A stretch of DNA of 64,000 nucleotides from a virus (IMGVR_UViG_3300011113_000581:24134-88133), one strand, 5' to 3'; shown: positions 13,758 through 32,382, counted from the first letter of the stretch. The notes: generated by a model not told the origin, from the letters alone. A program made the numbers and translations.

Positions 13758-13788
13758 TAGGCAGTTTAACGTCATACCCAGGACGTTA
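13758..13788 (-). repeat. pseudoknot motif A, copy 1
   Basis: UAACGUC-C-UGGGUA-U-GACGUUA-AAC-UGCCUA. Confidence 0.8.
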
Positions 13789-13790
13789 GC

Positions 13791-14117
13791 TTACTCTTTA
13801 ATTTGCTTAGCTTCTTCTTCCATAGTTTCTTCAAAAGTATATCGACGCCGTTTAATAGCGTCAGGGTTCTTTTCTTTTTGAATTACACGTGCATCTTCTG
13901 ATGCAGCATACAACACCTCCTGGAAAGAATCCCAAACAAACTTAGGATCTTTTAAGTATCCAGTAAATCCAAAAGCATCTAATGTAATAACATGTTGTTT
14001 AAGTAGTTCACAAAGCAAATCAGATTTACTTTGAACCAAATGCTTAAACTGTTCTTCGGGTAAATCGTAAGTATCAAGATTCATAACTAAAATCCTCATC
14101 AGGAAAAGCTTTTTCAA
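13791..14117 (-). CDS. hypothetical protein
   Basis: ORF in the operon. Confidence 0.55.
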   Translation of the reverse strand: MKKLFLMRILVMNLDTYDLPEEQFKHLVQSKSDLLCELLKQHVITLDAFGFTGYLKDPKFVWDSFQEVLYAASEDARVIQKEKNPDAIKRRRYTFEETMEEEAKQIKE

Positions 14118-14331
14118 TAGCAGCAGTTAATGCATCTATCATGAATTGTTTTTGCAATTGTTCTCCAAGGTTTGTCCACCACTGAAGGTCTGCATCTGTT
14201 TCATCCCATTCAATTTGAATAGTACCAGATCCATCTTCTTCAGAAGTGTATTTAATATTGAGTTTAAAAATAGAGTTTGAATCTACGGTTGAGGCACAAA
14301 GTTCTGCTCTGTATTCTTTTTGGTTTTCCAT
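14074..14331 (-). CDS. hypothetical protein
   Basis: ORF in the operon. Confidence 0.55.
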   Translation of the reverse strand: MENQKEYRAELCASTVDSNSIFKLNIKYTSEEDGSGTIQIEWDETDADLQWWTNLGEQLQKQFMIDALTAAIEKAFPDEDFSYES

Positions 14332-15269
14332 GCATTAGATAGTTGAGGTAAGGCTGTCCCTGGGAAAGGAACAAAGCCATTGTCTAACATGTTATCAAAA
14401 AGATCCCATGCATTGTGTTGCGTAAATACTTCTTTAGGTTTGTAGGTTTTCCATGCAGGCAACGGAGCCATAGAACCATGTTTGGTATACAGAACAAGGA
14501 ATCGACCTTTATCTGATTTACCTTCTGGTGGTGCGTACCACCAAGCCGTAGCATCTCTTGGTGCTTGACCACGGCAATTGTTACGTACCTCAGTCCTTTT
14601 AACAAGAAGCTGACGATAACGTTTCATCCAAGTTAAGTGAATACACCAAGGTTGATACCCTTCAATCTCAGCCTGGAACTCAGACAAATTATTTAGTTGT
14701 CTTTGGAAAGAACCGCAAGAGCAGTATGGTGTTTTCTGAAGTTCTTTATTGCAATTAACTTCATTGCTTTCATTATCCTCACTTGGATCCAAATAGCTTT
14801 CATTAATGATGTGGAAACCGTCAGGGGCAACCAAATGTCCCAGGTCAGCCTGATCACTCTGTAAAAGTGTCTCAAGTTTAATCCGATCCGATATGTGAAT
14901 AAATTTATCTGCCCACGAACGCTGAGCTTGCGCCGCAAACGAGAGGTGCCCAAGTGCGTGGCTGTAGTGCCAACCCTTGAACATGATGTATGCATTGTTA
15001 TGCCAAATGGATGGACCACGGTAGTTAGGACCTAGGTAAGAGAAAAAGTCTTTAAGGCGAAAAGTAAATTGCTGGTATGCAGCCTTGACTAAGTTCCTGT
15101 CATAAGTTTGCTCAGTACCATCGTTACGCACCACGATAACAGAATCATCTCGCAAATAAATTGCGGAGATTTCCGTGTCATCAAATTCCGGAAACGCACG
15201 TCTGATGTTACTCCGTGTGTAAATAATTTGTTGAGCCTGGTTAAGTTCTTTGATGAGTTTAGTGGTCAT
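14283..15269 (-). CDS. SWIM zinc-finger domain protein
   Basis: YCSCGSF...WCIHL (CxC-n-CxH). Confidence 0.6.
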   Translation of the reverse strand: MTTKLIKELNQAQQIIYTRSNIRRAFPEFDDTEISAIYLRDDSVIVVRNDGTEQTYDRNLVKAAYQQFTFRLKDFFSYLGPNYRGPSIWHNNAYIMFKGWHYSHALGHLSFAAQAQRSWADKFIHISDRIKLETLLQSDQADLGHLVAPDGFHIINESYLDPSEDNESNEVNCNKELQKTPYCSCGSFQRQLNNLSEFQAEIEGYQPWCIHLTWMKRYRQLLVKRTEVRNNCRGQAPRDATAWWYAPPEGKSDKGRFLVLYTKHGSMAPLPAWKTYKPKEVFTQHNAWDLFDNMLDNGFVPFPGTALPQLSNAWKTKKNTEQNFVPQP

Positions 15270-15304
15270 AATTGAATTGAGTTTGTGTTGATTTCCTGAC
15301 ATGC

Positions 15305-15475
15305 TCAGGATTTGGATTTAAATTTTTCAGCCTGGTACACACCGGTAGTAATTTTGTATGTACCAAAGACTGCTGTTGCAAGGGCGATGGGCGTGCCAAT
15401 CATAGCAGCAATTCCACCTGCAATCAAACCAGTTGCAACTCCTGTAACAAACGCAACTTTTTCTTCATGTTTCAT
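15305..15475 (-). CDS. small membrane protein
   Basis: Gly/Ala-rich hydrophobic hairpin. Confidence 0.55.
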   Translation of the reverse strand: MKHEEKVAFVTGVATGLIAGGIAAMIGTPIALATAVFGTYKITTGVYQAEKFKSKS

Positions 15476-15518
15476 TTGATTATTGTGAGTAGAATTAATT
15501 ATCTTCAAATAAAAACTT

Positions 15519-15773
15519 ATGGAAGAAACTTACATTCCACTGCATAAGTTTGAAATAGATCCTTCAATGGATGATTTGTTTTGGGAAGAAAAAATTAAAC
15601 GTACAATTCAAGAGTGTAATTCGGTTAGTACTTTAAAAGAAATGGCAACCCTCTTGGCGAGGATTGCCACGCAACGTCAAGGTGTAATTCGTGGGTTAAT
15701 CAAAGACATTCACGTTTTTAACAATATGTTAATTGATGTAAATGAAATTGCTAACCCAGAAATTAAACCTTAG
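15519..15773 (+). CDS. NblA-like phycobilisome degradation protein (divergent)
   Basis: PSMDDLF...KIKRTIQECNSVSTLKEMATLL...QRQGVIRGLIK aligns by eye to the NblA helix-loop-helix. Confidence 0.5.
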   Translation: MEETYIPLHKFEIDPSMDDLFWEEKIKRTIQECNSVSTLKEMATLLARIATQRQGVIRGLIKDIHVFNNMLIDVNEIANPEIKP

Positions 15774-16897
15774 AAACTGTAGTTTTCACCAGTATCAGGA
15801 TCTTGTGCAGATGCAAGAGCTTTCACTTCGACATCTACATCTGCAGTTCTAGACACCGGAAGAATTTGTACACCTTCTTTGATTCCGTAAGCACCACCAA
15901 GACGTTGTGCATCTTGATATGCATGTTGGTTAATGTAGTCTACAAATATTTCTTGGCATTTCCAAGTTGATTCACGATCTTCATCAGGAATTGAAAGACG
16001 ATTCAGTGATTCAATTGCATTTTCTTGAGAACTGTAATCAGGAATTTCAAAAGATTCGATAGCGCAGATTTCAACATTATTAGCACCGCGCATTTCATTA
16101 GCAAGTACAGGTATAAACACCGTAGTAGCATAAAACTTTTCGTTAAATGCTAAAGGTACTTCAGCTCCTAACGCTTTACTTAAACACTTAGACATTTCTT
16201 TTTCATACAACTTAATTTTATCTGCTGCATCAGTACCATTCAAACCTTTGAGTGTTAGTACAATTGGAATCTTGTGCGCACGTTTGTTGTCCTGGGTCAG
16301 GATATAAACTAGATATTTAGTACGAACACTATACTTACGGCGGTACATTTCACCTTTGCTGTTAGCAAGATCAGATGCAACTTTATCTGCATCCCAAAGT
16401 TTTTTGATTTCAGGATCATCAAATGAACCAATTGTCTGTTTCATCCCTGTGGTTTCTTCTACCATCAAAGGAGAACGTAACAAAATTTGCATGCGTGGCT
16501 CAGTAAAATTCAAGCCTTCTTCAACAGAAGTATTAGGTGCTATACCAAAGGTTTGTTTGTAATTCCAGATAACTGAATCTTTAGCAAATTGATCTTCTGT
16601 TGCAGTCCATCCGCATGTATCTAAATCAATTTTGCGGACAAACCATCCACGTACTTTAGATTTGTTTAAAGGTTGAATTGTAACAATACCTTGATAGCCA
16701 GTAATAAACTCTTTAGATTGAAAAAGTTTAAAGGAATCAAGCCCTCTAGTTGCAATCGCAGATGTTTCCTTAGTAGCAAGTGCAGATGTTTTCTTAGTAG
16801 TCATAACTTTAGTCGGAAGTTTTTCAGAAATAGTTTCTTTGGTAGGCTCTTCAGTTGGATCAGGTTTTTTTAGTAGATCAAGGACTGATTCAGTCAT
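15770..16897 (-). CDS. DUF5895-like protein
   Basis: GWF...GW, EGL...PRMQILLRSPL, KYLVYIL..DNK..H.IPIVLT.KG; resembles cyanobacterial plasmid/phage proteins as recalled. Confidence 0.5.
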   Translation of the reverse strand: MTESVLDLLKKPDPTEEPTKETISEKLPTKVMTTKKTSALATKETSAIATRGLDSFKLFQSKEFITGYQGIVTIQPLNKSKVRGWFVRKIDLDTCGWTATEDQFAKDSVIWNYKQTFGIAPNTSVEEGLNFTEPRMQILLRSPLMVEETTGMKQTIGSFDDPEIKKLWDADKVASDLANSKGEMYRRKYSVRTKYLVYILTQDNKRAHKIPIVLTLKGLNGTDAADKIKLYEKEMSKCLSKALGAEVPLAFNEKFYATTVFIPVLANEMRGANNVEICAIESFEIPDYSSQENAIESLNRLSIPDEDRESTWKCQEIFVDYINQHAYQDAQRLGGAYGIKEGVQILPVSRTADVDVEVKALASAQDPDTGENYSF

Positions 16898-16917
16898 TGT
16901 GTTGTTGAGTTGGTGAG

Positions 16918-16946
16918 TGGGCAGTTTAACGTCGTACCTAGGACGT
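16918..16946 (-). repeat. pseudoknot motif A, copy 2
   Basis: ACGUC-C-UAGGUA-C-GACGU-UAAAC-UGCCCA. Confidence 0.75.
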
Positions 16947-16949
16947 GCC

Positions 16950-17225
16950 TCACTCTAGATCAAGGTCAAGGTTTGGCTTAGGAAGATTAAAGGTTTTTAA
17001 CAATTCATTGTTACGCTTTTCTTCTAAATCAAAATATTCTTCTGAGATAGAAGACATGTGTTCATAAATTGCTTTGTTGTAATGACCACAACCAAGAAGA
17101 AAACAAACAAATTGATCAATGACATCAGTAACATACATAGAAGTAAGTGTATGTATTGTTGATCTATCACCGTCAATATGTTTGAATTCAAAGTAATTAA
17201 ACTGTTCTGTTTCAGTCATAATCAA
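16950..17225 (-). CDS. hypothetical protein
   Basis: ORF; QFVCFLLGCG motif. Confidence 0.55.
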   Translation of the reverse strand: MIMTETEQFNYFEFKHIDGDRSTIHTLTSMYVTDVIDQFVCFLLGCGHYNKAIYEHMSSISEEYFDLEEKRNNELLKTFNLPKPNLDLDLE

Positions 17226-18037
17226 AAGGGAGGTTCGCCATCGTCATCTGTAGGAGAGTTTAGTGTATAGCCTGGGAGGTCAGGCAGGTTGGTTCCCGTT
17301 TGGGCACCCCAAGGTTCAGCAAGATCTTCAGCGACCTTACCGCCCCACAGGCTAGCTACTCCAGTGCCAGATGCAACAGTTGTTTGTGGTTGAATAGATT
17401 TATTTTCGCTATTGTCTTTAGGTGACAAAGTCATAGATACCAATTGAATCTTGGTAGCAACTTTGCGCTCTTTAGTTTCTTTATCAGTCCAAGCATCAGT
17501 TACCAATCTGCCCTGGATCGTAAGACCTACACCTTTACGCGTGAAGTTAACAAGAAGTTCAGCATTGTTTAACTTATCTTCTGCAGTATTAATTGCATAG
17601 AAGTTAAACAGATCTGACTGATTTCTACCCATATAAACACCAAGGGTTTGATTGCAAATCATTAACCCATCCGGTGTAGTTTTAAATGCACGTGCATCAT
17701 TTTGGTCGATGTCTTTAACACACCTTCCACTGAGAATGATTGTATTAAGGATTGGGAATGATGCGTCAACTTGTGTAACAATTCCTCCATGCAAGGAATA
17801 CGTTTTTGTATTGATGTCGTATCGCAGCTTGGCGCCGTGAATGTAGATTTGTGCATTTGCTGGTACACGGGCAAACCGTTCAGCAGCCTTGCCATAAACA
17901 TTTAGTTGAATTGGAGTTGGTGCTTTATTACCTACTGGAGGCAACAACACATTACATACAGTTGCAAAAGAGCTTTCGCTAATTGCTTTTTCTTTAGGTG
18001 CTTCAGTTGTCTGGGCACAAAGGAATGAAAGATTCAT
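17222..18037 (-). CDS. ssb: single-stranded DNA-binding protein with tandem OB folds
   Basis: NTIILSGRCVKD, RKG..LTIQGRL.TD.WTDKET.ERK, acidic tail DDDGEPPF; N-half repeats the pattern (VYGKAAERF...IYIHG). Confidence 0.8.
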   Translation of the reverse strand: MNLSFLCAQTTEAPKEKAISESSFATVCNVLLPPVGNKAPTPIQLNVYGKAAERFARVPANAQIYIHGAKLRYDINTKTYSLHGGIVTQVDASFPILNTIILSGRCVKDIDQNDARAFKTTPDGLMICNQTLGVYMGRNQSDLFNFYAINTAEDKLNNAELLVNFTRKGVGLTIQGRLVTDAWTDKETKERKVATKIQLVSMTLSPKDNSENKSIQPQTTVASGTGVASLWGGKVAEDLAEPWGAQTGTNLPDLPGYTLNSPTDDDGEPPF

Positions 18038-18057
18038 TAGATTAAACAGTTGGTGGT

Positions 18058-18085
18058 AAAACAGTTTAACGTCATACCTGGGACG
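18058..18085 (-). repeat. pseudoknot motif A, copy 3
   Basis: CGUC-C-CAGGUA-U-GACG-UUAAAC-UGUUUU (weak stem 2). Confidence 0.7.
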
Positions 18086-18090
18086 GTACA

Positions 18091-19956
18091 TCAGTGTGTA
18101 TCAAACCAGGTGTAGCCTACCTTAGCATCGCCATCGATAGGACAACGGAAGTTAAAGAAGTGTTGAGCTTTTGGAAAAGCTTCCAATGCTACAGACTTAA
18201 GTGTATCCGTTAGCTCTGGTTTGCAAGCCAACTGGACTTCATCATGGATCATAGCTGCTTGTTGCCAATCAATACCATGGACATAACCAAGTTCATCCAT
18301 ATCTGTATGAATGTTAATAACAACTTGTTTCATAATTAATGCACCTGCTGATTGCAATAAAACATTCAATGCTTTGAAATCAGACCTGCAATAAAGAATA
18401 CGTTTATCTAAACCACGCAACCAGTTATTTTGTTGTAGTGTTTTTGCAAGATGTTCTTTAAGTTTACGTAGTGCTGGGACACCATCCATGAATGAATTAA
18501 TTGCAGTACTACCTAGTTTGCGCAGTATTATTTCATTTTTTTCATTCGGATCAATAACAGTTCCTGCTTTAAGTGCACCGGCTCCATAGGCTACAGCGTA
18601 TAGAAGACGCTTTGAAATATCTCTGGTAGCTACACCAAAACGTTCTTGATTATAAACATGAATGTCGATTGATTCATCTGTTACTACACGTGCGTACTCA
18701 CCGTTATCCCAGTATGCAAGATAACCAGCAAGACACCTAAGTTCCAAAGCTTTGGCATCTACACCAATTAACTCCCAACCATCTGGTGCATGAAACAAAG
18801 ATCTACATTCTTTACCATAGGGTGAATATGCTGCTGGCACTTGAGCCATATTTGGATCACGATGGCTACAACGTCCAGTAATACAACCATTAGTTATTAC
18901 ATCACCATGTACACAACCAGTGTCATTATTAACTAACTTAAGCCAAGCATTTTTACCATCAGCAATTTGACCAAGACGTTTCTCAATCAACATATATTCA
19001 GCTAAAGGTTTGGCTTCTGGATACGGAAGCTTTTCAAGTACGTCATCATCAAGGACAGGGTTTCCTTTTTCAGTTGACTTACTTGGTTTCCATCCATATT
19101 TTTGTTGGAGCCGCTGAACAATTTGCTGTCTGGATCCAGGATTAAATTCTTCCAGTCGAACTTTTTCAAACGGAACTCCTTTTACATAACCACGTGCTTT
19201 GTTATTAACCTTTGGTATAAATACTTCTTTATGTTCAATAGGTGGAAAAATTTCTTTTAGATGTGTTTGTAGTTCTGTTTCTTTTGCTCTGAGACTATCC
19301 ACCAGATCAAGAGCTGCATCCACATCAAAAGGAAAACCTGCTCGCACTTGTGACTCAATACATCTAGCAAAGTCATGTTCAAGCTTAAGTGCTGGCTCTG
19401 GATAGTTTTGATTTTGAATTTTTTCAAATAATTTTGTAGTAACTGCAACGTCTTGCCTACAATACTCAGCCATTGCTTCCGAGTATTCTGAGAAGTCTTT
19501 GAAGTCAATCTTGTAATCAGCCAACCGATAGCCCCATGCCTTAAGTGAGGCTGAACCACGGAGATTCTTTGGAACCTCCGTATATTGTTCTTCATCAAGT
19601 TCATAAAGTTTTTCTTTGGGCCAAATGAGTCGAGTACAAATGAGTGTGTCAATAACTCGTGCAGCTTTAAACGTATAAAACGGATAGAGCTTACGAATTA
19701 CAGGCAAGTCGTAGAACAAGATGTTATGGCCAATGAGCACATGAGCCCGAGCCAAATGCTCGAGACCACTAGCAATATCATCAGGCCCATAAGTAAAAGT
19801 TTGTTTTCGCTGGACATCATACAGTACCAAGCAATGTATCTTTGTAACCTTGTCATAAAGATTATCAGTTTCTAAATCAAACACATACCAGTTCTCAACC
19901 TCTGAACTTGCCTTCAGCGGAAACTTCAAGGTTTTGACTAGCGAGGTCTGTGTCAT
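18091..19956 (-). CDS. polA: family A DNA polymerase (T7-like) with 3'-5' exonuclease
   Basis: ExoI FDLET, ExoII GHNILFYD, ExoIII YCRQD; motif A GVDAKALELR, B KRLLYAVAYG, C IHDEVQ. Confidence 0.95.
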   Translation of the reverse strand: MTQTSLVKTLKFPLKASSEVENWYVFDLETDNLYDKVTKIHCLVLYDVQRKQTFTYGPDDIASGLEHLARAHVLIGHNILFYDLPVIRKLYPFYTFKAARVIDTLICTRLIWPKEKLYELDEEQYTEVPKNLRGSASLKAWGYRLADYKIDFKDFSEYSEAMAEYCRQDVAVTTKLFEKIQNQNYPEPALKLEHDFARCIESQVRAGFPFDVDAALDLVDSLRAKETELQTHLKEIFPPIEHKEVFIPKVNNKARGYVKGVPFEKVRLEEFNPGSRQQIVQRLQQKYGWKPSKSTEKGNPVLDDDVLEKLPYPEAKPLAEYMLIEKRLGQIADGKNAWLKLVNNDTGCVHGDVITNGCITGRCSHRDPNMAQVPAAYSPYGKECRSLFHAPDGWELIGVDAKALELRCLAGYLAYWDNGEYARVVTDESIDIHVYNQERFGVATRDISKRLLYAVAYGAGALKAGTVIDPNEKNEIILRKLGSTAINSFMDGVPALRKLKEHLAKTLQQNNWLRGLDKRILYCRSDFKALNVLLQSAGALIMKQVVINIHTDMDELGYVHGIDWQQAAMIHDEVQLACKPELTDTLKSVALEAFPKAQHFFNFRCPIDGDAKVGYTWFDTH

Positions 19957-20975: not shown

Positions 20976-20996
20976 AGTTGTGTTGAGTTGAGTGAA

Positions 20997-21024
20997 CAGG
21001 TAGTTTAATGTCATACCCAGGACA
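20997..21024 (-). repeat. pseudoknot motif A, copy 4
   Basis: UGUC-C-UGGGUA-U-GACA-UUAAAC-UACCUG (compensatory U-A). Confidence 0.8.
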
Positions 21025-21046
21025 AGTCAATTAAATTTTATACAAC

Positions 21047-23461: not shown

Positions 23462-23490
23462 AAAAGAAAGACCCCCGTTTACACGGGGGC
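23462..23490 (-). terminator. intrinsic terminator/attenuator
   Basis: CCCCCGU-4 nt-ACGGGGG followed by UCUUUCUUUU on the minus strand. Confidence 0.65.
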
Positions 23491-23929: not shown

Positions 23930-24430
23930 TTATGTTACATATTTATTATTAAGAATATAATGCAATGTTCCTTTAGAACTAATATTAAATTTTTCCATTA
24001 AAGCTTTATATCCTAAACCATTTGAATGATCGTTTTTAATCTGATTAATTTGATCTTTTGTGTATTTGCGTATACAACTTGATGCTTTAATTGCATGATT
24101 CAATCGTTGTTTTGAACATCTGTCTAACATGTTTTCTGTTTGAGTTCCAATGCAAATATTGTCAAACGAATTATCTTTACTATTTCCATTTAAATGTCTA
24201 ACAACTATGCCAACTTCAAATAATTTTTCTTGATATTTTTCATACGCAACTAAACGATGCAGAAATACTTTATGTGTTTTTGTACTTATTTTTAAATTAA
24301 AAAATAAATAGCCAGACTGAGAGCAACTTAATTTTAAAGGTTCTTTCTTGCGAATACCATAAACAATATTATTTTTTACTCGATAGCCTTTTCGATAAGC
24401 ACATATTAAAGCGGTTTGAGCTTGATTCAT
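23930..24430 (-). CDS. HNH homing endonuclease (HNH_3 type)
   Basis: GYL...LHRLVA...VVRHLNGNSKDN...NI...T..EN; AT-rich; start moved to 24430, after the tRNA. Confidence 0.8.
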   Translation of the reverse strand: MNQAQTALICAYRKGYRVKNNIVYGIRKKEPLKLSCSQSGYLFFNLKISTKTHKVFLHRLVAYEKYQEKLFEVGIVVRHLNGNSKDNSFDNICIGTQTENMLDRCSKQRLNHAIKASSCIRKYTKDQINQIKNDHSNGLGYKALMEKFNISSKGTLHYILNNKYVT

Positions 24431-24445
24431 AAATAATAAAAAGAC

Positions 24446-24520
24446 TGCCGACGACAGGATTCGAACCTGCACTTGAGTGATTTTAAGTCACTTACCTTCT
24501 TCCAATTGGGTTACGTCGGC
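24446..24520 (-). tRNA. trnL: tRNA-Leu(UAA)
   Basis: GCCGACG/CGUCGGC-A acceptor, AGUGA-CUUAAAA-UCACU anticodon arm, GCAGG-UUCGAAU-CCUGU T arm; no encoded CCA. Confidence 0.9.
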
Positions 24521-24727
24521 ATTACTTGGATTTACACTCACATCTATTGATGTGTGATACCAAGTGTGATCATGAGGTAATGGTTCACAGCCGTAGTCCC
24601 ACGTATCGTAATCATCTTCGTTACGTGGATCCTCAATCAATATGTATTGAGGTGAATGATCATGGATGTATTCACCAAGGTTTGCCATGGCCATGGCAAG
24701 TAATTGTTCGTCTGTGTAGTTAGTCAT
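24488..24727 (-). CDS. hypothetical acidic protein
   Basis: ORF whose last 33 nt lie inside the tRNA. Confidence 0.5.
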   Translation of the reverse strand: MTNYTDEQLLAMAMANLGEYIHDHSPQYILIEDPRNEDDYDTWDYGCEPLPHDHTWYHTSIDVSVNPSNADVTQLEEGK

Positions 24728-24778: not shown

Positions 24779-26533
24779 CTATGCAGATGCTAGCGCAGAT
24801 TCGCGTTTGGTCAACGCTTTACTGAAAGCAGTTGTGTAAAGCTCACGTTCCTCATCCGTAAGCCTGGCATTACCAATACCAGCGATCTGTTTGACAGACA
24901 TCATACCCATGTTTACTTCTAGTTGAATGGTAAACATTGGTTTGCCATCAATCATGCACAACACAATGAAGTGTTTCTTTTTACGAACACCATCTGCATA
25001 ACCACTGGCACTACCGACGCAATTACGTACGGCTTGTCCCCAAGCAGCTAGTTGATGCGTGTCAACTGGCTGGAAGAATGTCCACTTGCTGGAACCAAGT
25101 TCAAGTTTGACTGGTTCAGGAAACAAATCTTGGGGTAGTGATTCATTTTTGTTCTTAACTTTCCAGGCAACAGATTGGATGTGATCATGGAACTCCATAA
25201 GTCTCCAACGTTTTGGAACGTCAAGAGTCAATGGTTCTGTTGCGCACTCGTTGTGTGCAAGTACAGTATCTAACATTGAAATAGTATCACCCCAGTTGGA
25301 ATAATAAAAACGTGGATGCTGCAATTCTTCATCGTAAGTAAAACGAGTACGTGTGCTATTCATTTCTTTATCATATTCTTTTTCAAGGATAGAAAAGAAA
25401 GAAGCAACAGGCATATGTTTGTTTAACCAAGCTTGTGTTAGAAGTGAGCCATAACGTGTTGATTGAAAACTCAACAATTGATTAATGTGAGATTGATAAT
25501 AATCAATAGGGCAGTTAGGCCAAACTTCATACACCCAATTAATCGTATTAAACAAAACATGGATTTGAGACCATGGTGCACGAATAGATTTAAGCAGTTG
25601 ATTTTTAGAATTATAAAAGCTTGCATTAACTTCATCACATTTTGCTTGAATCCATTTTTTGAAGAATGGAGTAGCAATAATGTGTAGTAGTTTATTTAGC
25701 CTTCGATAAATATCACCGTCATAACCACTACCGTGTGCATAGTGAGTAATAAGTTTGAACAATAAGTCATATGAAATTACAGCTTTAGTAATGTCATGTT
25801 GCTGCCAATAATCTTTGCATTGGTGTCCGTAACGATAGTCATTAGTAAAGATTACGCAAGCTGGATTGATTGCCTGGAGCCGAGCAAAGGTTGATCGACT
25901 ATCAGACCACATAGGAATAGTGTTAAACAGTTGATCTTCAAATCCTTTTAGTTGTTGAGACAAGTTGCCAGACTTTTTATAATAGCTTTGAACACTTGGA
26001 ATGTTCCAGTTTTTAGCATCGTGACCATCAATAATATCTTGTTTAGTTACTAGTTCGTTGTATGTAAAATATTGAACTCGACCAACATGATATGTAAATA
26101 GTTTGTTTGGATTGTCAATATTTAAATGTTGACGAATCTTATGTGGAAGCATCCTGTGTGCAGATGCATTGTCTTTGAATGCATATGAGTAGCCATAAAC
26201 ATATTGATTTTCTTGTCCTTTGGGTGGTAACCATGCTGCATACCACACTTGCTCAAAGTGATACAAGATTGCGTACGGTGTTACTACACGATCAATAATT
26301 CGTGTGAACAGTTGATAACGATCAGGTGCTGCCTGTGAGTTAATATTGTCAATAGCATCGTTATACAATGATGCTGGCAATACTTCAGTTGGAATAAGTT
26401 GATTAGGTTTACCTAGTGGATGTGTAGCTTTCTTAGTTTTGTTAGTTGTTTTCTGCTGTTTAGCCAATGCTTTAAGAGCTGGGTCATACGCCATCAACTC
26501 TTGTTGCAGTTGAGCAGGAAGACGGAATTGCAT
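24779..26533 (-). CDS. PcfJ-like domain protein
   Basis: C-terminal EFHD...LAAWGQAVRNCVG...YAD...FTIQL...VKQIAG.GN. Confidence 0.7.
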   Translation of the reverse strand: MQFRLPAQLQQELMAYDPALKALAKQQKTTNKTKKATHPLGKPNQLIPTEVLPASLYNDAIDNINSQAAPDRYQLFTRIIDRVVTPYAILYHFEQVWYAAWLPPKGQENQYVYGYSYAFKDNASAHRMLPHKIRQHLNIDNPNKLFTYHVGRVQYFTYNELVTKQDIIDGHDAKNWNIPSVQSYYKKSGNLSQQLKGFEDQLFNTIPMWSDSRSTFARLQAINPACVIFTNDYRYGHQCKDYWQQHDITKAVISYDLLFKLITHYAHGSGYDGDIYRRLNKLLHIIATPFFKKWIQAKCDEVNASFYNSKNQLLKSIRAPWSQIHVLFNTINWVYEVWPNCPIDYYQSHINQLLSFQSTRYGSLLTQAWLNKHMPVASFFSILEKEYDKEMNSTRTRFTYDEELQHPRFYYSNWGDTISMLDTVLAHNECATEPLTLDVPKRWRLMEFHDHIQSVAWKVKNKNESLPQDLFPEPVKLELGSSKWTFFQPVDTHQLAAWGQAVRNCVGSASGYADGVRKKKHFIVLCMIDGKPMFTIQLEVNMGMMSVKQIAGIGNARLTDEERELYTTAFSKALTKRESALASA

Positions 26534-26560
26534 AGTGAGTTCGGAGTGAGTGTGTGGTGT

Positions 26561-26590
26561 TGAGCAGTTTAACGTCATGCTCAGGACGTT
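26561..26590 (-). repeat. pseudoknot motif A, copy 5
   Basis: AACGUC-C-UGAGCA-U-GACGUU-AAAC-UGCUCA; both stems perfect. Confidence 0.85.
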
Positions 26591-26593
26591 GGA

Positions 26594-26794
26594 TCAGATG
26601 CGCATTATTTCTTCACCATTACGGGTAAAGACAATGGCATCATCATAATCATCCATGTACTCTTGCAAAGTCATGGTCTTGTCTGGTGTAAAGACAGGCA
26701 TCTGGTTTGCAAACCCAAATGCACTATATACACGACCTTTAGGACCACGGATAACAAGGTACCAACGTTTAAATTCAATAGAGAAACCAATCAT
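26594..26794 (-). CDS. hypothetical protein
   Basis: Early-region ORF. Confidence 0.55.
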   Translation of the reverse strand: MIGFSIEFKRWYLVIRGPKGRVYSAFGFANQMPVFTPDKTMTLQEYMDDYDDAIVFTRNGEEIMRI

Positions 26795-27054: not shown

Positions 27055-27134
27055 GAGTAGTGTGAATAGATGAAGTGTTGTTGTTACTAATAGTATCTAC
27101 GTGGTACAGGTTTTGAGGGGGGTCCTAGGGGGGA

Positions 27135-27338
27135 TTATTTGTTTGCAGTAGTTAGTTGCTCTGTTTTAGCAAACATTCCATTAGGACCATACTTCTCAAC
27201 AACATCAGGAAATGTGTCGAGTAAACGCTGACGGTTTTTAGGATCTGCATATCGGAGAGCAAGTCCCAATGCAGAGATGAATGAACCACCCATAGTTTCC
27301 ATACGGGTGACAAGTTCAGTGAATTGAATTGGTGTCAT
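27135..27338 (-). CDS. conserved phage hypothetical protein
   Basis: GGSF..AL..A...AD..N..RL...FP. Confidence 0.65.
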   Translation of the reverse strand: MTPIQFTELVTRMETMGGSFISALGLALRYADPKNRQRLLDTFPDVVEKYGPNGMFAKTEQLTTANK

Positions 27339-27361
27339 AGTTGTTAAGGTTGAGGTGAATG

Positions 27362-27400
27362 CTGGGACTTACACACTATACTTACGTTAGTGATGCCCAG
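27362..27400 (-). repeat. RNA motif B, copy 2
   Basis: CUGGG-CAU-CACUA...UAGUG-UGUAAGU-CCCAG. Confidence 0.8.
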
Positions 27401-27407
27401 TGTTTCT

Positions 27408-27605
27408 TTAAAATAATTTAATATTTCGTTTACTCAATCCTGTGCCTGGGATACTAATAGATCCAAGGACACCAGATTTGCGAGCGTTAAGTGTTAGCTG
27501 GAATGGACCAAGTTTGAATGATTTGGTATACGATTTGATACCATGTTCAGTTAAGTTAAAGCCAGCGATAGTGCGGTCAAAGTTAATAGGTGATTTCTTT
27601 GTCAT
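27408..27605 (-). CDS. DUF4236-like small protein
   Basis: KSFKLGPF.L.LN..KSG...SISIPGTGLS. Confidence 0.55.
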   Translation of the reverse strand: MTKKSPINFDRTIAGFNLTEHGIKSYTKSFKLGPFQLTLNARKSGVLGSISIPGTGLSKRNIKLF

Positions 27606-27928
27606 TACCAATCTCCATTACTAAAAGATTGAGTTACAACAAATGAAAGACTAAAAGCTTCTTCTTCAATTTCATTATCATCTGGTGTATAGTATCGAGC
27701 TTCAAAGCCACCAGATCCTGTTGTCTTACATTCAATAGCTCGATATAAAAGATTACGACATGAATTTTTCATGCGATTAATAGTTGGTACAGAGTGACCA
27801 GGCTCACCAATTGTATTAACCCATTTCCAATCCAAGGCATGCATTGTAATCAAAACTTTCTCAAAGTTAAAACGTTCGAGAAGATCTTCGATGAGTTCGG
27901 ATTGATGATCAGTAATTGTGAAAGTCAT
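27605..27928 (-). CDS. hypothetical protein
   Basis: FNFEKV...M.ALDWKW...PT...TGSGGFEA. Confidence 0.6.
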   Translation of the reverse strand: MTFTITDHQSELIEDLLERFNFEKVLITMHALDWKWVNTIGEPGHSVPTINRMKNSCRNLLYRAIECKTTGSGGFEARYYTPDDNEIEEEAFSLSFVVTQSFSNGDW

Positions 27929-28004
27929 ACTGATTTAATGAATTGAATGATTAAGTATGTGCCACATATAAAGAATGTGCACAATACAAATGCTTCAGGC
28001 CAGC

Positions 28005-28286
28005 TCATGGTTTGTTGTAGATAGTTCCTTTACGTTTGTAAAGGTCAAACCCTTCCATTGTCTTGGTGTCAAGAAATGTCCAAGGCCCAATGTTGGCACA
28101 GCCAATTAAGTAGTAGAACCGATAGAAGCCTGGGTTTTCATCCCACTCTTCATCGGTACACATGAGTTTAGATCCAACGCCAAGACTATTCTTGCGTTGG
28201 GTAACCCATATGTCACCTGGCTGAGCAGGCAGGTGACGTGTATTAGGTTGAGTCTTTGTTTGAGTCTTTGGTTTAGTTATGGTCAT
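28005..28286 (-). CDS. hypothetical protein
   Basis: Early-region ORF. Confidence 0.5.
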   Translation of the reverse strand: MTITKPKTQTKTQPNTRHLPAQPGDIWVTQRKNSLGVGSKLMCTDEEWDENPGFYRFYYLIGCANIGPWTFLDTKTMEGFDLYKRKGTIYNKP

Positions 28287-28501
28287 TGCAGATCTCCAGG
28301 TATGAGTGCATTGGTGTCTTCATCAGACATATTTGTCATAACAAATTTATTTCCATCGGCGTCTACAAAGCCGCCGACAAAACCAATACCATGTCGATCA
28401 GCAGATTCTTTCATCTTGGCAACGATTGACATAGCTTGCAATCGCTGACTATCAATTGCATCAGGGATGCGTGGTTTAGGTGCGTCGTTAAGTGCGGTCA
28501 T
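28283..28501 (-). CDS. hypothetical protein
   Basis: ORF downstream of motif B copy 3. Confidence 0.6.
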   Translation of the reverse strand: MTALNDAPKPRIPDAIDSQRLQAMSIVAKMKESADRHGIGFVGGFVDADGNKFVMTNMSDEDTNALIPGDLQ

Positions 28502-28527
28502 AGTGAATTAAGTGTGGAATAGTTGAG

Positions 28528-28572
28528 CAAGCTGGGACTTACACGCTTTCTGTCAGAACGATGCCCAGCTTG
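28528..28572 (-). repeat. RNA motif B, copy 3
   Basis: CAAGCUGGG-CAU-CG...CG-UGUAAGU-CCCAGCUUG. Confidence 0.8.
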
Positions 28573-28670
28573 TGTTCATAAGCTTACTACTCTCTGTCAA
28601 GGGTAAGCACCCCGTTCATGAGTTGTAACACTCACGTTGAGGGTGAAAGCTTATTGAGAATAGTTCGCAA

Positions 28671-28994
28671 TTACCGATGCATCTCTTGATGTTCTTTCCA
28701 TGCAGCGGCATGCATCTCAGCCATGGTAATAGGTGGTTCACCATAAGAATCTTCTGGCTCACCAGGCCATTCAATTGCTTTCTCTAGGTAGCCAATAGCT
28801 TCCAATAGATATTCATCTGAACCATACGGAAGATCGTTGTATCCCATAGGACGTTTCTCTTCTCGTTGGTAGATAGCTTTAAGTTCTTCGATGATTAGCG
28901 TGATGCGCATATCATCGTTGAGGCGTGGGGTGTATTCACTGCCATCGTGACGAGTATACGTCTGGCTAGTGAAGTAAAGTTCGTGTTTGCCCAT
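28671..28994 (-). CDS. hypothetical protein
   Basis: ORF downstream of motif B copy 4. Confidence 0.6.
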   Translation of the reverse strand: MGKHELYFTSQTYTRHDGSEYTPRLNDDMRITLIIEELKAIYQREEKRPMGYNDLPYGSDEYLLEAIGYLEKAIEWPGEPEDSYGEPPITMAEMHAAAWKEHQEMHR

Positions 28995-29022
28995 AGTGTG
29001 ATTGCTGTAGGTTTGGGTTGAT

Positions 29023-29063
29023 GCTGGGACTTACACCACGTACTTATGTAGTGGATGCCCAGC
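29023..29063 (-). repeat. RNA motif B, copy 4
   Basis: GCUGGG-CAU-CCAC...GUGG-UGUAAGU-CCCAGC. Confidence 0.8.
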
Positions 29064-29128
29064 TTGTAGTATTGGCACTATTACCAATACATGGGTAGTA
29101 TTGGCAAATCTTACGTGCTATTCAATAT

Positions 29129-29482
29129 TTAAATTAGACCAAGCAATGAGAGCCAGGAGTCTGGATGGTCGGGTTCTACTTCGTCATCACCTGGGGTGAA
29201 ACAGACTGAGTCGAACGCCCACTCCTCAATGTCCTCGTTGCTTGGGATTTCGTACCAACCCTGGAGGTCTTCGTCAGCGTACTTGGGTTTCCAGTAGAGC
29301 TGGAGTACGCCATGCTTGTCGCGGTAAACGCTGCCGTTTTTGGGGTAGGTGCTGAGGTCTCCAAGCTTGATTCCCTTTGGATCAAAGGTGATGTCAGCTT
29401 GGAACTGCTCTGTTCCTTCTTCTTCTGAGAAGGGAACATAACCGAAGGACTCAGCGATTTGTTGGGTGACGGGGTGAAGCAT
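29129..29482 (-). CDS. hypothetical protein
   Basis: Ends DSVCFTP..DEVEPDHPDSWLSLLGLI. Confidence 0.6.
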   Translation of the reverse strand: MLHPVTQQIAESFGYVPFSEEEGTEQFQADITFDPKGIKLGDLSTYPKNGSVYRDKHGVLQLYWKPKYADEDLQGWYEIPSNEDIEEWAFDSVCFTPGDDEVEPDHPDSWLSLLGLI

Positions 29483-29563
29483 AAGATTAGTTCTGTGATA
29501 AGGATGGAAATGATTGCGATGATGTGAATAAACACATCGTCTTCATGTTGTGTAATTGGTTGA

Positions 29564-29758
29564 TTAGTCATAGTTAGAAATTACGTAACGTTCGTTGTAA
29601 TAATCACAAGCATTGCGTTCGGCACTAGAGATTTCATCAATGCCATCCCATTCGCTTTGCTCGGATTCACGCATAGCTTGCTCTTGCTGGTACGCAAAAT
29701 CAGCCCATGCATCTAGAAAATCTGCATTGTAGTTCTCATCAAATGGTTGAGTTGTCAT
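29564..29758 (-). CDS. hypothetical acidic protein
   Basis: ATG 20 nt after pseudoknot copy 6. Confidence 0.55.
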   Translation of the reverse strand: MTTQPFDENYNADFLDAWADFAYQQEQAMRESEQSEWDGIDEISSAERNACDYYNERYVISNYD

Positions 29759-29778
29759 GCAATGAATTGACAAAGGAC

Positions 29779-29806
29779 TAAGCAGTTTAACGTCATACTC
29801 AGGACG
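29779..29806 (-). repeat. pseudoknot motif A, copy 6
   Basis: CGUC-C-UGAGUA-U-GACG-UUAAAC-UGCUUA. Confidence 0.8.
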
Positions 29807-29855
29807 AGTATCAGGAACATGAATAAATGACGTTTATCAGGATTACAAGTAATAG

Positions 29856-30221
29856 TTAATCAAATGGCACAAAATCTGTATCTTCTATAAGTTTTGAAAT
29901 GTGGATACAATCTTCTTTAATAGCTTCTTCATCACCATCCCATTCGCTAGTCTGGTTCTCAATTACTTCGCATCCAATATCTTCCAGTTGATCAGTAAAT
30001 GATTTCCAACTGTTTGAGTTGCCGTAAACATGAGCGTAGCGCCCAGTTTGATCAGCAACAAGTGCTACGTATGTCATAGGTTGAGTTTCTGGTAGTGTGA
30101 ATGGTCTTTGTTCAAAGGCCATTAACTTTGCAGTGATGGCTCGTAGATCATGATCAGATAGTTCTCCGTTAGATCTCCATTTCAACGAGGTGTTGTTGCA
30201 TTGTGTCGTTGTGTTGACCAC
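29856..30221 (-). CDS. hypothetical protein (start uncertain; ATG at 30077 possible)
   Basis: Early-region ORF. Confidence 0.5.
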   Translation of the reverse strand: MVNTTTQCNNTSLKWRSNGELSDHDLRAITAKLMAFEQRPFTLPETQPMTYVALVADQTGRYAHVYGNSNSWKSFTDQLEDIGCEVIENQTSEWDGDEEAIKEDCIHISKLIEDTDFVPFD

Positions 30222-30403
30222 TGGAGTAACGGTTTGGTGAAATCGGTACCAAGCATAGCGCCCGTTAATACAAACACAATGCCAGTAACAATGGTCACAG
30301 ATAAGAAGTTACAAAAGTAACGACTTAGTCTGTGCTGCTGGTACTCAGGGTACATATCAGTGTGAATGAATTGTTTGGGTCCAAGTTTAGTAATCTGTTT
30401 CAT
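30182..30403 (-). CDS. small membrane protein
   Basis: One hydrophobic segment. Confidence 0.5.
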   Translation of the reverse strand: MKQITKLGPKQFIHTDMYPEYQQHRLSRYFCNFLSVTIVTGIVFVLTGAMLGTDFTKPLLQWSTQRHNATTPR

Positions 30404-30549
30404 AATAGTTGTGTCAATGTAAAGGGAATCAACCTGACGGTTGATGGGGGGACTAGTACTACTGTACTACGTTGCGGTAGGCAGGAGGGGAGGGGAGATC
30501 TCCTGCAGAAAACCCACTCATCATTGATGAGAAGGGTTAAGTGCAGGAA

Positions 30550-30789
30550 TCAATCGTCAAGATGCTCTTGTTCCCATTTAATAAGAGCGTGGTTTAATCT
30601 CACCTTTCGTTCAAGTACCACGCAAAAAGGAACAATATCTTGAAATTCTGTTAGGCCATCTTGCCATTTATAAAAGATCTCTAATGCAGCTTGGCGCTGC
30701 TGTTCAATCTCCTGGTCAATAACATTGTCTCTACGTGCAAGAAGACGAGCTTCTTGGGTGAGGAGACGTTCAACAGCTTTAGGAGTCAT
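30550..30789 (-). CDS. hypothetical protein
   Basis: Early-region ORF. Confidence 0.55.
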   Translation of the reverse strand: MTPKAVERLLTQEARLLARRDNVIDQEIEQQRQAALEIFYKWQDGLTEFQDIVPFCVVLERKVRLNHALIKWEQEHLDD

Positions 30790-30879
30790 GATGAATCCAG
30801 GTGGAGTTGCGTTAAGTTGTGCAGATGTAAAGTCTGCAGAAACCCATCTTGTTACAGATGGGAAATTGCAGACATTGTG

Positions 30880-31116
30880 TTAGTCGGCCATTGCTTGACG
30901 CCGTTCACACTCCATAGTTTGGCAATAGTTGTAGTAATCCACCATCGCAGCATGCATCTCTGACATGCCACTGGGAATACCACTGCCAAGAGTCTGAACA
31001 GCTCGATCCCACCAATGTCCATCAATGCATTGTTGCTCGTAATGAAGCTGAGTTGATTCACCACCATACCAGACGACACGATCGCTGGAATTAACAAGAG
31101 GTTGATAGATAAACAT
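30880..31116 (-). CDS. hypothetical protein
   Basis: MFIYQPLV start after an A/C-rich leader. Confidence 0.55.
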   Translation of the reverse strand: MFIYQPLVNSSDRVVWYGGESTQLHYEQQCIDGHWWDRAVQTLGSGIPSGMSEMHAAMVDYYNYCQTMECERRQAMAD

Positions 31117-31132
31117 GAGTTGAGTAAGTAAA

Positions 31133-31288
31133 TTAACGATGAACAGGGGGGACTTTCGGCATAATCGCATTAGCAAGTGCAAAGCGAACAGCCTTGATTG
31201 TTGTTCCCACCTTCTCTTTGCTTTGGTCACGCTCCAGCCTATTAGCTGTAGCTACCAGTAATGACGCAATTGATTTGCGAATAGCCAT
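31133..31288 (-). CDS. 51-aa basic hypothetical protein
   Basis: Manual ORF MAIRKSIASLLVATANRLERD...PPVHR. Confidence 0.55.
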   Translation of the reverse strand: MAIRKSIASLLVATANRLERDQSKEKVGTTIKAVRFALANAIMPKVPPVHR

Positions 31289-31321
31289 GAGTAACATAAG
31301 CCACTCTTAGTGAGTGGCAAT

Positions 31322-31368
31322 AACTGCCAGGGGAGTTGAACCCCTGGTACGGCCTAGAACCGTCAGTT
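31322..31368 (-). ncRNA. tRNA-elbow mimic (t-element) C1
   Basis: AACUG-ACGG(UUCUAGG)CCGU-A-CCAGGGG(UUCAACU)CCCCUGG-CAGUU. Confidence 0.7.
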
Positions 31369-31533
31369 TGTGCGATAGCCATTAGCTGCGCACCAAGCCA
31401 TATGGACTTGATGCTTATCAGCAGGCCATGCATGTGTGCTGCATTGTTGTGCAGTAGCTTTGTCAAGCTGGTGCACGGTTACTTGTGATGCAATACCAAA
31501 GATTGCAAGTGTAATAGCAATTGACTTGATCAT
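31363..31533 (-). CDS. small cassette ORF with N-terminal hydrophobic segment
   Basis: MIKSIAITLAIFGIAS...C..H.WP...WC..NGY. Confidence 0.6.
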   Translation of the reverse strand: MIKSIAITLAIFGIASQVTVHQLDKATAQQCSTHAWPADKHQVHMAWCAANGYRTN

Positions 31534-31568
31534 TGAGTTGAAGTAAGCCACACTCAGTGTGTAGCAAT

Positions 31569-31615
31569 AACTGTGGGAGGGTTTGCACCTCCCAACCCGC
31601 TTTAACGGATCAGTT
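31569..31615 (-). ncRNA. t-element C2
   Basis: AACUG-A-UCCG(UUAAAG)CGGG-U-UGGGAGG(UGCAAAC)CCUCCCA-CAGUU. Confidence 0.7.
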
Positions 31616-31762
31616 GCGAACTAATTCCTCACTAACGAGGAACCGTTCACCTTCCCCTGGTTCTTGGGATTGAACATATTTGTCAGCCGCTTCACGGCTA
31701 GCAAATACACCCAAGAAGTGATCCTGGTACAGATCACAGAGGATAACAACGTAAACCGACAT
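31610..31762 (-). CDS. 50-aa cassette ORF
   Basis: Manual ORF MSVYVVILCDLYQDHFLGVFASREAADKY...ELVRN with an AGGAG SD. Confidence 0.65.
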   Translation of the reverse strand: MSVYVVILCDLYQDHFLGVFASREAADKYVQSQEPGEGERFLVSEELVRN

Positions 31763-31768
31763 GGTTTA

Positions 31769-31805
31769 CTCCTGTTATGCGGTACCCATCTCCGCTGGGG
31801 GTAAT
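31769..31805 (-). repeat. 37-nt direct repeat containing the SD (copy 1)
   Basis: One mismatch to 32027..32063. Confidence 0.9.
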
Positions 31806-31852
31806 AACTGGGACAGGGTTTGCACCTGTCCACCCGCTTTAACGGATCAGTT
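31806..31852 (-). ncRNA. t-element C3
   Basis: AACUG-A-UCCG(UUAAAG)CGGG-U-GGACAGG(UGCAAAC)CCUGUCC-CAGUU. Confidence 0.7.
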
Positions 31853-32020
31853 GCTACGCACAATGCGCAGCTTTGGGTCTTGCTTACAAGCAAAAGATAT
31901 TTGCTGAGGCGTTGCCGCCTCGCAAATGTAGTTGGGGTCACCCCCAAAAAACTTGTTGGTGACGCATGTCACCTTCATGTCATCCATACGGATGACAAAG
32001 TAAAGATTGTTAAGGTTCAC
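31847..32020 (-). CDS. 57-aa cassette ORF
   Basis: GTG start 6 nt after AGGAG; ends AAC TGA. Confidence 0.6.
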   Translation of the reverse strand: MNLNNLYFVIRMDDMKVTCVTNKFFGGDPNYICEAATPQQISFACKQDPKLRIVRSN

Positions 32021-32026
32021 AGGAAT

Positions 32027-32063
32027 CTCCTGTTGTGCGGTACCCATCTCCGCTGGGGGTAAT
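32027..32063 (-). repeat. 37-nt direct repeat containing the SD (copy 2)
   Basis: AUUACCCCCAGCGGAGAUGGGUACCGCAYAACAGGAG. Confidence 0.9.
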
Positions 32064-32102
32064 GCCTGGGGCTGGAGTCGAACCAGCCCTACACCTTCAG
32101 GC
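32064..32102 (-). ncRNA. t-element C4
   Basis: GCCUG-AAGGUGUA-GGGCUGG(UUCGACU)CCAGCCC-CAGGC. Confidence 0.7.
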
Positions 32103-32324
32103 GGGATCAAATGGAGAAACCCATACCAAATCTTGAGGATCCAGTAAATACAAACTGCACATAGCGCAGTAGATCTTGTGTTCATCCCACTGCGCAGCAG
32201 TTGGATCTAGTTTCACCAATTCCATGAACTGATCAACAAACCACTGAGCAGTAACTCCATACACAGGTGCATCACCAATGGTGTCGCACCCAATAACCTT
32301 GTTAGCAATGTTGAGAAGAGTCAT
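32097..32324 (-). CDS. 75-aa cassette ORF
   Basis: Follows pseudoknot copy 7; stop codon lies in the C4 stem. Confidence 0.6.
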   Translation of the reverse strand: MTLLNIANKVIGCDTIGDAPVYGVTAQWFVDQFMELVKLDPTAAQWDEHKIYCAMCSLYLLDPQDLVWVSPFDPA

Positions 32325-32352
32325 GATGTTGATAAGTAATTAGAATGAACTT

Positions 32353-32382
32353 GCTACGGTTTAACGTCCATCAGCTAGACGT
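32353..32382 (-). repeat. pseudoknot motif A, copy 7 (divergent)
   Basis: ACGUC-UA-GCUGAUG-GACGU-UAAAC-CGUAGC. Confidence 0.65.

Follow-up and report, generated by a model that had tools for sequence, protein, structure and literature searches.

The gene 32 pseudoknot of bacteriophages T2 and T4 is a compact H-type fold with a 1-nt loop 1. Another small knot, coremin (xrRNA-C, where xrRNA stands for exoribonuclease-resistant RNA), is found in beny-, cucumo-, and many other eukaryotic RNA viruses (Dilweg et al., 2019, PMC6546385; Dilweg et al., 2023, PMC10520033) and stalls both Xrn1 and scanning ribosomes (PMC10520033). Its hairpin of 3-4 bp (G2 U3 C4 / A10 C11 G12) has a sequence-specific closing pair, and changing this C-G pair to G-C abolishes function (PMC6546385); its loop follows the rule YGAD or YGNNAD, with Y in first, G in second, and A in penultimate position and any base but C at the end (PMC10520033); and in its spacer, U13 U14 A15 A16 A17 C18 U19 A20 C21 (compared here as the consensus UUAAACUAC), A16-A20 are essential and U13 U14 tolerant. 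Coremin needs a second hairpin for Xrn1 resistance; it is also a stimulator of −1 frameshifting, as seen in reticulocyte lysate, and E. coli colonies have been used successfully to screen coremin variants with a frameshift reporter. An engineered and natural Watson-Crick variant, xrRNA-WCC, has been described (Dilweg et al., 2023, PMC10321173), and a flaviviral xrRNA, which belongs to a different xrRNA class, blocks bacterial RNase J1 in vitro (PMC5760640); ordinary frameshifting pseudoknots do not stop Xrn1. Here, we describe a 28-nt element that recurs, once in divergent form, at seven sites, each in a gap between early and replication genes, in a 64,000-nt stretch of viral DNA (bases 24134-88133 of the 88-kb IMG/VR virus record IMGVR_UViG_3300011113_000581; hereafter, the window). 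On the sense strand, the element folds as a compact H-type pseudoknot of RNA. It is a member of a large family of phage RNAs that has no catalogue entry, and it can best be regarded as a variant of the coremin-type knot.

All seven sites lie on a single strand, the motif reading on the minus strand of the window, as a first-pass annotation of this DNA had proposed. Six copies are canonical and read (C/U)GUC-C-N6-(U/C)-GAC(G/A)-UUAAAC-N6 (28 nt), and copy 7 is divergent, with a 9-nt loop. The architecture comprises a stem 1 of 4 bp, a loop 1 of 1 nt (C), a stem 2 of 5-6 bp, a junction of 1 nt (U), and a loop 3 of 6 nt (UUAAAC), which presumably lies in the minor groove of stem 1 as a triplex. 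A covariance model built from relatives scores the six canonical copies at 38.8-51.6 bits (E 2e-11 to 5e-8) and copy 7 at 10.8 bits, as a local match only. When the motif is counted by means of the 10-mer GTTTAACGTC, allowing at most one mismatch, 12 occurrences are found in the window, as compared with 3.8 ± 2.1 in shuffled sequences, none of which (0/100) reaches 12. No further copies were found in the other 24 kb of the 88-kb virus record.

The window copies match coremin at G2-C5 (GUC-C) and G9-U19 (GACG-UUAAAC-U), that is, at 15/21 positions, and both RNAs have a GUC/GAC first stem of 3-4 bp, a closing C-G pair, C as the first loop base, A as the penultimate loop base, and a last loop base other than C. 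The closing C-G pair that coremin requires is found in 213/218 family members and in 7/7 window copies; loop 1 is C in 200/204 members, the penultimate loop base is A in 199/204, and the last is U or A in 193/204 (all family counts, based on 204, 218, 184, or 87 members, are among the matches listed, at loci fetched from two scans of viral contigs described below). The UUAAAC linker, previously called invariant, is indeed constant in the window, reading UUAAAC-U in 7/7 copies; relatives vary mainly at U13/U14 (AAAAAC, CAAAAC, UAAAAC), and positions 20-21, which pair in stem 2, are G/A and a variable base. The family-wide invariants (closing C-G, loop 1 C, penultimate A, and UUAAAC-U) are the positions that mutagenesis has identified as essential in coremin (PMC6546385). 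For both RNAs, an H-type knot is proposed in which adenines of the spacer occupy the minor groove of stem 1, and both occur in intergenic or untranslated RNA. They differ in that the phage loop has 8 nt (C-UGNNCA-U) with U as its second base, in that phage stem 2 has 5-6 canonical pairs where coremin makes a short, non-canonical contact, and in that positions 20-21 are variable and part of stem 2 in the phage motif but AC in coremin. The window copies also have no second hairpin (the leaders that follow have a minimum free energy [MFE] of 0.0), and the phage knot belongs to the mRNA of a double-stranded DNA phage in a cell without Xrn1.

Two further groups of knots invite comparison. With xrRNA-WCC (PMC10321173), the phage motif shares canonical antiparallel loop-spacer pairing in an identical register, the invariant A-U pair of the phage family corresponding to pair 7-19, and its stem 2 is of the Watson-Crick kind, as seen from compensatory changes (83 double-change cells, see below); the two differ in that xrRNA-WCC has a stem 2 of 3 bp, a bridging G, an essential G8-C18 pair, and a second hairpin, whereas the phage knot has a stem 2 of 5-6 bp, a bridging C, and an unpaired U opposite C18. 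The frameshifting knots of the luteoviruses beet western yellows virus (BWYV) and potato leafroll virus (PLRV) (PMC10321173) are likewise small H-type folds in which loop 1 is short, the junction is one base, and the short stem 1 is overlain by an A-rich loop 3, and they lie at the same distance of 5-6 nt downstream of the A-site codon; unlike them, the phage knot is intergenic, follows a stop codon rather than a slippery heptamer, and has no consistent downstream frame. A likeness to the preQ1-I riboswitch and the pistol ribozyme was considered and dropped, given that there is no Rfam match, that loop 2 is 1 nt, and that there is no P2/P3; a riboswitch is also ill-fitted by seven copies before unrelated genes.

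The fold is argued for by covariation among relatives. Two scans of viral contigs were run: in scan 1 (at least 117 loci), stem 1 and the linker were fixed, and in scan 2 (at least 119 loci), stem 1 was left free while the other stem and the linker were fixed. In scan 1, 5-6 of the 6 stem 2 pairs are present in 100 of the 148 matches listed, as compared with ∼3% expected by chance, and the stem 2 sequences are numerous and diverse; with stem 2 fixed, stem 1 adopts dozens of complementary forms (e.g., CGCC/GGCG, ACAC/GUGU, and AAAG/CUUU). An alignment of 81 sequences contains 83 double-change cells in stem 2 against 30 ± 7 in shuffles (0/500); 96.5% of its cells are paired in register versus 19-52% in slid registers, but as its sequences had been selected for pairing, weight can be given only to the covariation measures. 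Covariation is seen for pairs 10-14 with 26-30, and the outermost stem 2 pair (columns 9-31) is weak. When the TTAAAC sites of the fetched loci (2 Mb) are sorted by pairing, 204 have 4/4 pairs in stem 1 and 5-6/6 pairs in stem 2, far more than in the neighbouring classes. Covariation of both stems, first noticed in the window copies, is thus confirmed once relatives are added. The first-pass annotation had further argued that the G-U pairs work on the minus strand only and that the element is therefore RNA, and the family bears this out: in members selected by Watson-Crick pairs only, which is a strand-symmetric choice, G.U occurs 115 times and A.C 22 times, and this excess indicates pairing in the sense strand, as RNA. 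Because the two stems have no bases in common and the loop lengths are constant (1, 1, and 6 nt), a single compact H-type fold is likelier than two alternative hairpins.

The family extends far beyond the phage in which it was noticed. The element was at first treated as specific to that phage, a view that has to be given up: each of the two scans yields more than 100 viral loci (lower bounds), from many unrelated phages and with strong covariation. Four carriers were inspected by eye, namely Staphylococcus phage StauST398-3, where the knot lies between head genes (loop 3 UUAAAC), Vibrio phage D456, where it is intergenic (UUAAAC), the T7-like Paracoccus phage ParMal1, where it stands before a leader with a Shine-Dalgarno (SD) sequence (CAAAAC), and Mycobacterium phage Labelle, where it stands before a tRNA (AAAAAC). 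In Labelle (L264), the knot (1495-1530) lies 6 nt after a stop codon, and the next annotated feature is a tRNA-Gln (1714-1788), ∼190 nt downstream. Staphylococcus phietaviruses carry the motif, and BLAST also lists Nostoc, Microcystis, Bacillus, Lactobacillus, Streptococcus, Arthrobacter, and crAss-like phages. One exact stem 2 variant was found in 30 bacterial or metagenome-assembled genome (MAG) contigs from many phyla. A 13-base skeleton pattern was no commoner than its backwards control in 351 genomes of the Methylococcus MAG class and 351 of the Planomicrobium class, which, for these 702 genomes, suggests that the motif is rare in the sampled bacterial chromosomes and mainly phage-borne. 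A BLAST search with copy 5 gave no match in E. coli genomes, a weak test with a 38-nt query against 28 Gb. Spread over phages without an obvious common protein favours a mechanism that is either protein-free or host-universal.

The motif matched no family when it was compared, as the first-pass annotation had suggested, with Rfam 15 at the gathering score in the window; nor was there a match in four loci derived from the window (E ≤ 10) or in 12 distant ones (E ≤ 5), and RF03003 (GP20-b) had no match at E ≤ 10 in the whole virus record. In the literature that links coremin or xrRNA with phages or RNase J, we found no paper describing the motif in phages, nor is it mentioned in a preprint that applies a genome language model to non-coding elements.

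The window comes from a lake cyanophage. The runs listed as containing the stretch are DNA runs from freshwater, river, estuary, and sediment metagenomes, with no RNA run among them, and the DNA polymerase shares 74% identity with its counterpart in Synechococcus phage S-EIV1, an Arctic lake isolate. Kinship with S-EIV1 is visible only at the protein level, megablast of the 20-kb arm against phage records giving a single 48-bp match only. S-EIV1 has six copies of the knot in its homologous arm, preceding ssb, the positional equivalents of the GP88, PcfJ-like, and DUF5895-like genes and of the small hydrophobic open reading frame (ORF), and another ORF; its annotated intergenic gaps at these sites measure 54-60 nt, that is, ∼5 nt, the 28 nt of the motif, and ∼21-27 nt. 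Between orthologous sites in S-EIV1 and the window, there are compensatory changes in both stem 1 and stem 2.

In the window, where all of the following features are on the minus strand, copy 1 (13758-13785; CGUC-C-UGGGUA-U-GACG-UUAAAC-UGCCUA, 50.9 bits) has a TAA stop 5 nt before it and the ATG (13734) of a 37-residue hydrophobic ORF 23 nt after it. Copy 2 (16918-16945; 42.8 bits), in which stem 2 is UAGGUA/UGCCCA with 5/6 pairs, lies between a TGA stop 4 nt upstream and the ATG (16897) of a DUF5895-like gene 20 nt downstream, and copy 3 (18058-18085; 40.0 bits), with a stem 2 of CAGGUA/UGUUUU (5 pairs, including 3 G.U), between the TGA of the DNA polymerase A gene, 5 nt upstream, and the ATG (18037) of ssb, 20 nt downstream. 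Copy 4 (20997-21024; 38.8 bits) is the only one in the window with UGUC/GACA as stem 1; its stem 2 is UGGGUA/UACCUG, a TAA stop stands 22 nt before it, and the ATG (20975) of the GP88 gene follows after 21 nt. The highest score is that of copy 5 (26561-26588; 51.6 bits), whose stem 2 (UGAGCA/UGCUCA) has 6 Watson-Crick pairs and which has a TGA stop 5 nt before it and the ATG (26533) of a PcfJ-like gene 27 nt after it. Copy 6 (29779-29806; UGAGUA/UGCUUA, 48.8 bits) is 49 nt from the upstream stop and 20 nt from the ATG (29758) of a 64-residue ORF. Copy 7 (32353-32381; 10.8 bits, local), with a stop 55 nt upstream and the ATG (32324) of a 75-residue ORF 28 nt downstream, retains stem 1 and UUAAAC. 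Its stem 2 had been drawn as GCUGAUG/CGUAGC, with 6-7 bp, and is in fact only GCUG/UAGC, with 4 bp; as it also has a 2-nt loop 1 and is missing the invariant A-U pair, we count it as a divergent member.

The other local claims of the first-pass annotation stand up well to measurement: all seven copies end 20-28 nt before a start codon, the four copies said to lie within about 5 nt of the upstream stop (copies 1, 2, 3, and 5) lie 4-5 nt from it, and the ssb (product SSB, PF00436), GP88, PcfJ-like, and DUF5895-like identities of downstream genes hold, the remaining products being the 37-residue hydrophobic ORF and the two small ORFs. The link to the start (20-28 nt, 7/7) is tighter than that to the stop (4-55 nt). 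The leaders between knot and ATG (13735-13757, 16898-16917, 18038-18057, 20976-20996, 26534-26560, 29759-29778, and 32325-32352, minus strand) are unstructured and SD-less as described, with an MFE of 0.0 in 7/7 cases, but the description A/C-rich fails for copies 6 and 7, whose leaders are U-rich. All seven are G-poor, 16898-16917 being G-free, and across the CGUC (cyanophage) clade, the G content of the leaders is 5.9%, as compared with 21% in the window.

Position rules were derived from 184 non-redundant members. The flanking frames are on the same strand as the element in 108-112 cases and on the opposite strand in 14-19, such that the element is found in sense orientation between genes, and a long same-strand frame encloses only 14/184 members. 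Between the upstream stop and stem 1, distances set in sharply at 5 nt (37 members at 5 nt, 15 at 6 nt, 8 at 7 nt, and 9 at 4 nt or less), and those between the end of the knot and the start codon begin and peak at 19-22 nt. The knot would thus be packed tightly against, yet outside, both the mRNA channel of a ribosome at the stop codon and the initiation footprint, so that it may stay folded. Members near a start only (53) outnumber those near a stop only (24), many of the latter being artefacts of ORF calling. Outside the cyanophages, the knot precedes SD leaders (AGGAG), hairpins, or U-runs, in some distant members with the hairpin directly after stem 2, and such varied neighbours make it a module that can be combined with different surroundings.

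Some of these surroundings are of note in themselves. In three AT-rich phage contigs (L146, L148, and L200), the knot is immediately followed by a U-run and two TATAAT-like boxes, resembling a terminator-plus-promoter cassette; in L148 and L200, a stop codon stands 6 nt before it, and L146 is truncated at its upstream end. A near-identical module of ∼70 nt, found in L009, L036, L045, L057, L066, L080, L084, L092, L100, L104, and L107, consists of a knot with UUGAUA/UGUCAG as stem 2, a small hairpin (CCGC-AGACAGA-GCGG), and TATATAA and lies ∼53 nt before a 203-residue ORF. A tandem arrangement is seen in L058 (362-420, plus strand), where a canonical knot is followed after 3 nt by a divergent one, CGUC-CUGAUAC-GACG-UUAAAA-GAUCAG.

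What might such a knot do? By analogy with coremin, we tentatively favour, at a little under an even chance, the possibility that it is a protein-free block to machines arriving from its 5' side and that it shields and insulates the leader and cistron downstream. A 5' roadblock was one of two functions put forward in the first-pass annotation, and it draws indirect support from the conserved coremin core, known from experiment to block Xrn1 and scanning ribosomes, and from the flaviviral xrRNA that blocks RNase J1. The 28-nt knots would sit at cistron boundaries within polycistronic early/replication mRNAs and, acting without protein, would present a mechanically stable, direction-dependent roadblock. 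Halted on the 5' side could be ribosomes leaving the upstream ORF and, once the transcript has been cut upstream, either a 5'-3' exonuclease of the RNase J type or RNase E in its 5'-end-dependent mode; the SD-less, unstructured leader and the cistron that follows would then make up a stable, independently initiated unit.

Several observations weigh against such a roadblock. The Vibrio host group is not known to encode RNase J, and as the motif is present in a Vibrio phage, RNase J cannot be the sole target. Ordinary frameshifting pseudoknots fail to stop Xrn1, so a compact knot alone is insufficient. Xrn1 resistance is also not simply transferable from coremin, because coremin needs a second hairpin and the window copies have none; the longer stem 2 of the phage knot may supply the stacking that the second hairpin gives to the very short stem 2 of coremin. 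The second loop base is U in 190/204 members where coremin requires G. Finally, the knot is followed by a U-run in 22/87 non-CGUC members, in some of them with a TATAAT-like box after that, which fits a role in 3'-end formation or termination.

The spacing to the start codon raises the possibility that the knot (at −21 to −48) instead aids translation initiation, serving as a standby platform for 30S/S1 or keeping the SD-less leader unpaired and thereby raising initiation. The 20-28-nt distance to the ATG is kept in 7/7 window copies even where the upstream stop is 22-55 nt away, the family-wide distance peaks as described above, and the leaders are unstructured, G-poor, and devoid of SD sequences. 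Elsewhere in the family, however, the knot stands before ordinary SD leaders (AGGAG), or before U-runs, hairpins, or a tRNA with no start nearby, and coremin hinders the passage of ribosomes rather than recruiting them; we therefore consider an initiation aid unlikely.

The sharp peak in the stop-to-stem 1 distance at 5-6 nt, on the other hand, could point to a gene-end module that is linked to the stop codon and either shields the upstream cistron's 3' end against 3'-5' exonucleases or serves as a terminator or attenuator stem. The 24/184 members that are near a stop and not near a start would fit, as would the U-runs, with or without TATAAT-like boxes, of the non-CGUC members. In the window, however, 3/7 copies are 22-55 nt from the stop and still 20-28 nt from the start, and 0/7 have the U-run directly after stem 2 that an intrinsic terminator would show; together with the predominance of near-start-only over near-stop-only members, this makes a gene-end function improbable.

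The first-pass annotation had raised a protein-binding translational operator, with gene 32 as a precedent. In such a scheme, binding of the phage SSB would start at the knot and extend along the leader, tying seven genes into one regulon. The T2/T4 gene 32 knot does have a similar architecture (a compact H-type fold with a 1-nt loop 1, bordering an unstructured leader on its 5' side), and one copy does precede ssb. The phage knot nevertheless has no sequence similarity to it and is followed by seven different genes, 6/7 copies preceding genes other than ssb. The SSB encoded here is of the bacterial OB-fold type (PF00436), with no gp32-type match from Pfam and PHROGs, and the conserved loop bases are accounted for by the coremin fold. 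The motif is pan-phage and independent of an SSB gene, being present in a Staphylococcus head operon and ahead of a tRNA in a mycobacteriophage, as well as in one Vibrio phage and one T7-like Paracoccus phage, with no evident common protein. We accordingly disfavour the operator and hold it to be quite improbable.

There is little room for a recoding signal, in which readthrough or frameshifting at the end of the upstream ORF would be promoted by a knot placed 5 nt beyond its stop codon. The spacing does equal that of frameshift and readthrough stimulators, and coremin stimulates −1 frameshifting, but the gene downstream of the four stop-proximal copies is in frame 0, +1, −1, or none, as expected by chance, and slippery heptamers are not enriched 5-9 nt upstream (6/184 over three positions versus 1-2 per position elsewhere), which leaves recoding very improbable. 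The upstream ORF of copy 5 (66 residues; window 26533-26596, minus strand) is in frame with the PcfJ-like gene with no intervening stop, such that readthrough of its UGA would fuse the two across 60 stop-free nt, an arrangement compatible with chance. Least credible of all is a DNA promoter with TAAACT as the −10 box for host or phage RNA polymerase and a transcript start downstream of the motif, since, although TAAACT fits TAnnnT and copy 4 (21002-21030, minus strand) reads TTGACT-17-TAAACT in a σ70-like manner, it is the only such copy (a −35 box 16-18 bp from the −10 hexamer in only 1/7), promoter-like sites in the region number 36 versus 49.7 ± 8.4 in shuffles, and duplex DNA leaves two covarying stems and strand-specific G.U pairs unexplained.

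The window has other features of interest. The Rfam abiF RNA (RF03085) is matched at 7032-7144 on the plus strand with 49.7 bits, above the gathering score, and is followed after 5 nt by a tRNA-like gene that ARAGORN cannot assign (anticodon "ca"). Inside the early arm, a tRNA-Leu(UAA) gene (24445-24521, minus strand) overlaps the 5' end of an HNH endonuclease ORF (23930-24472), the true start of which is therefore probably further downstream. Two strong terminator-like hairpins with U-runs (23471-23490 and 15642-15670, both minus strand) are found on the gene strand of the early arm and suggest that it contains more than one transcription unit.

The knot is abundant, strongly covarying, and absent from Rfam 15, a clear gap in RNA catalogues, and because it has cultured carriers, namely S-EIV1 on Synechococcus PCCC-A2c (which has it at the same genes) and the Staphylococcus phietaviruses, its function is directly testable. 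A wider proposal, possible but in our view rather doubtful, is that it represents the first exoribonuclease- and ribosome-resistant RNA class of prokaryotic viruses: a 28-nt, protein-free, universal cistron punctuation used by the phages of many bacterial phyla, with a three-dimensional core that it would have in common, by convergence or very old descent, with coremin, an xrRNA known from RNA viruses of plants, fungi, and insects. Should ribosomes or the 5'-3' decay enzymes of bacteria indeed be halted by the knot, programmed exoribonuclease resistance would extend from eukaryotic RNA viruses to DNA phages, and there would be an explanation of how single cistrons in long phage operons can be separately stabilised and initiated; synthetic operons would also gain an insulator or stabiliser that is portable and, at 28 nt, very small.

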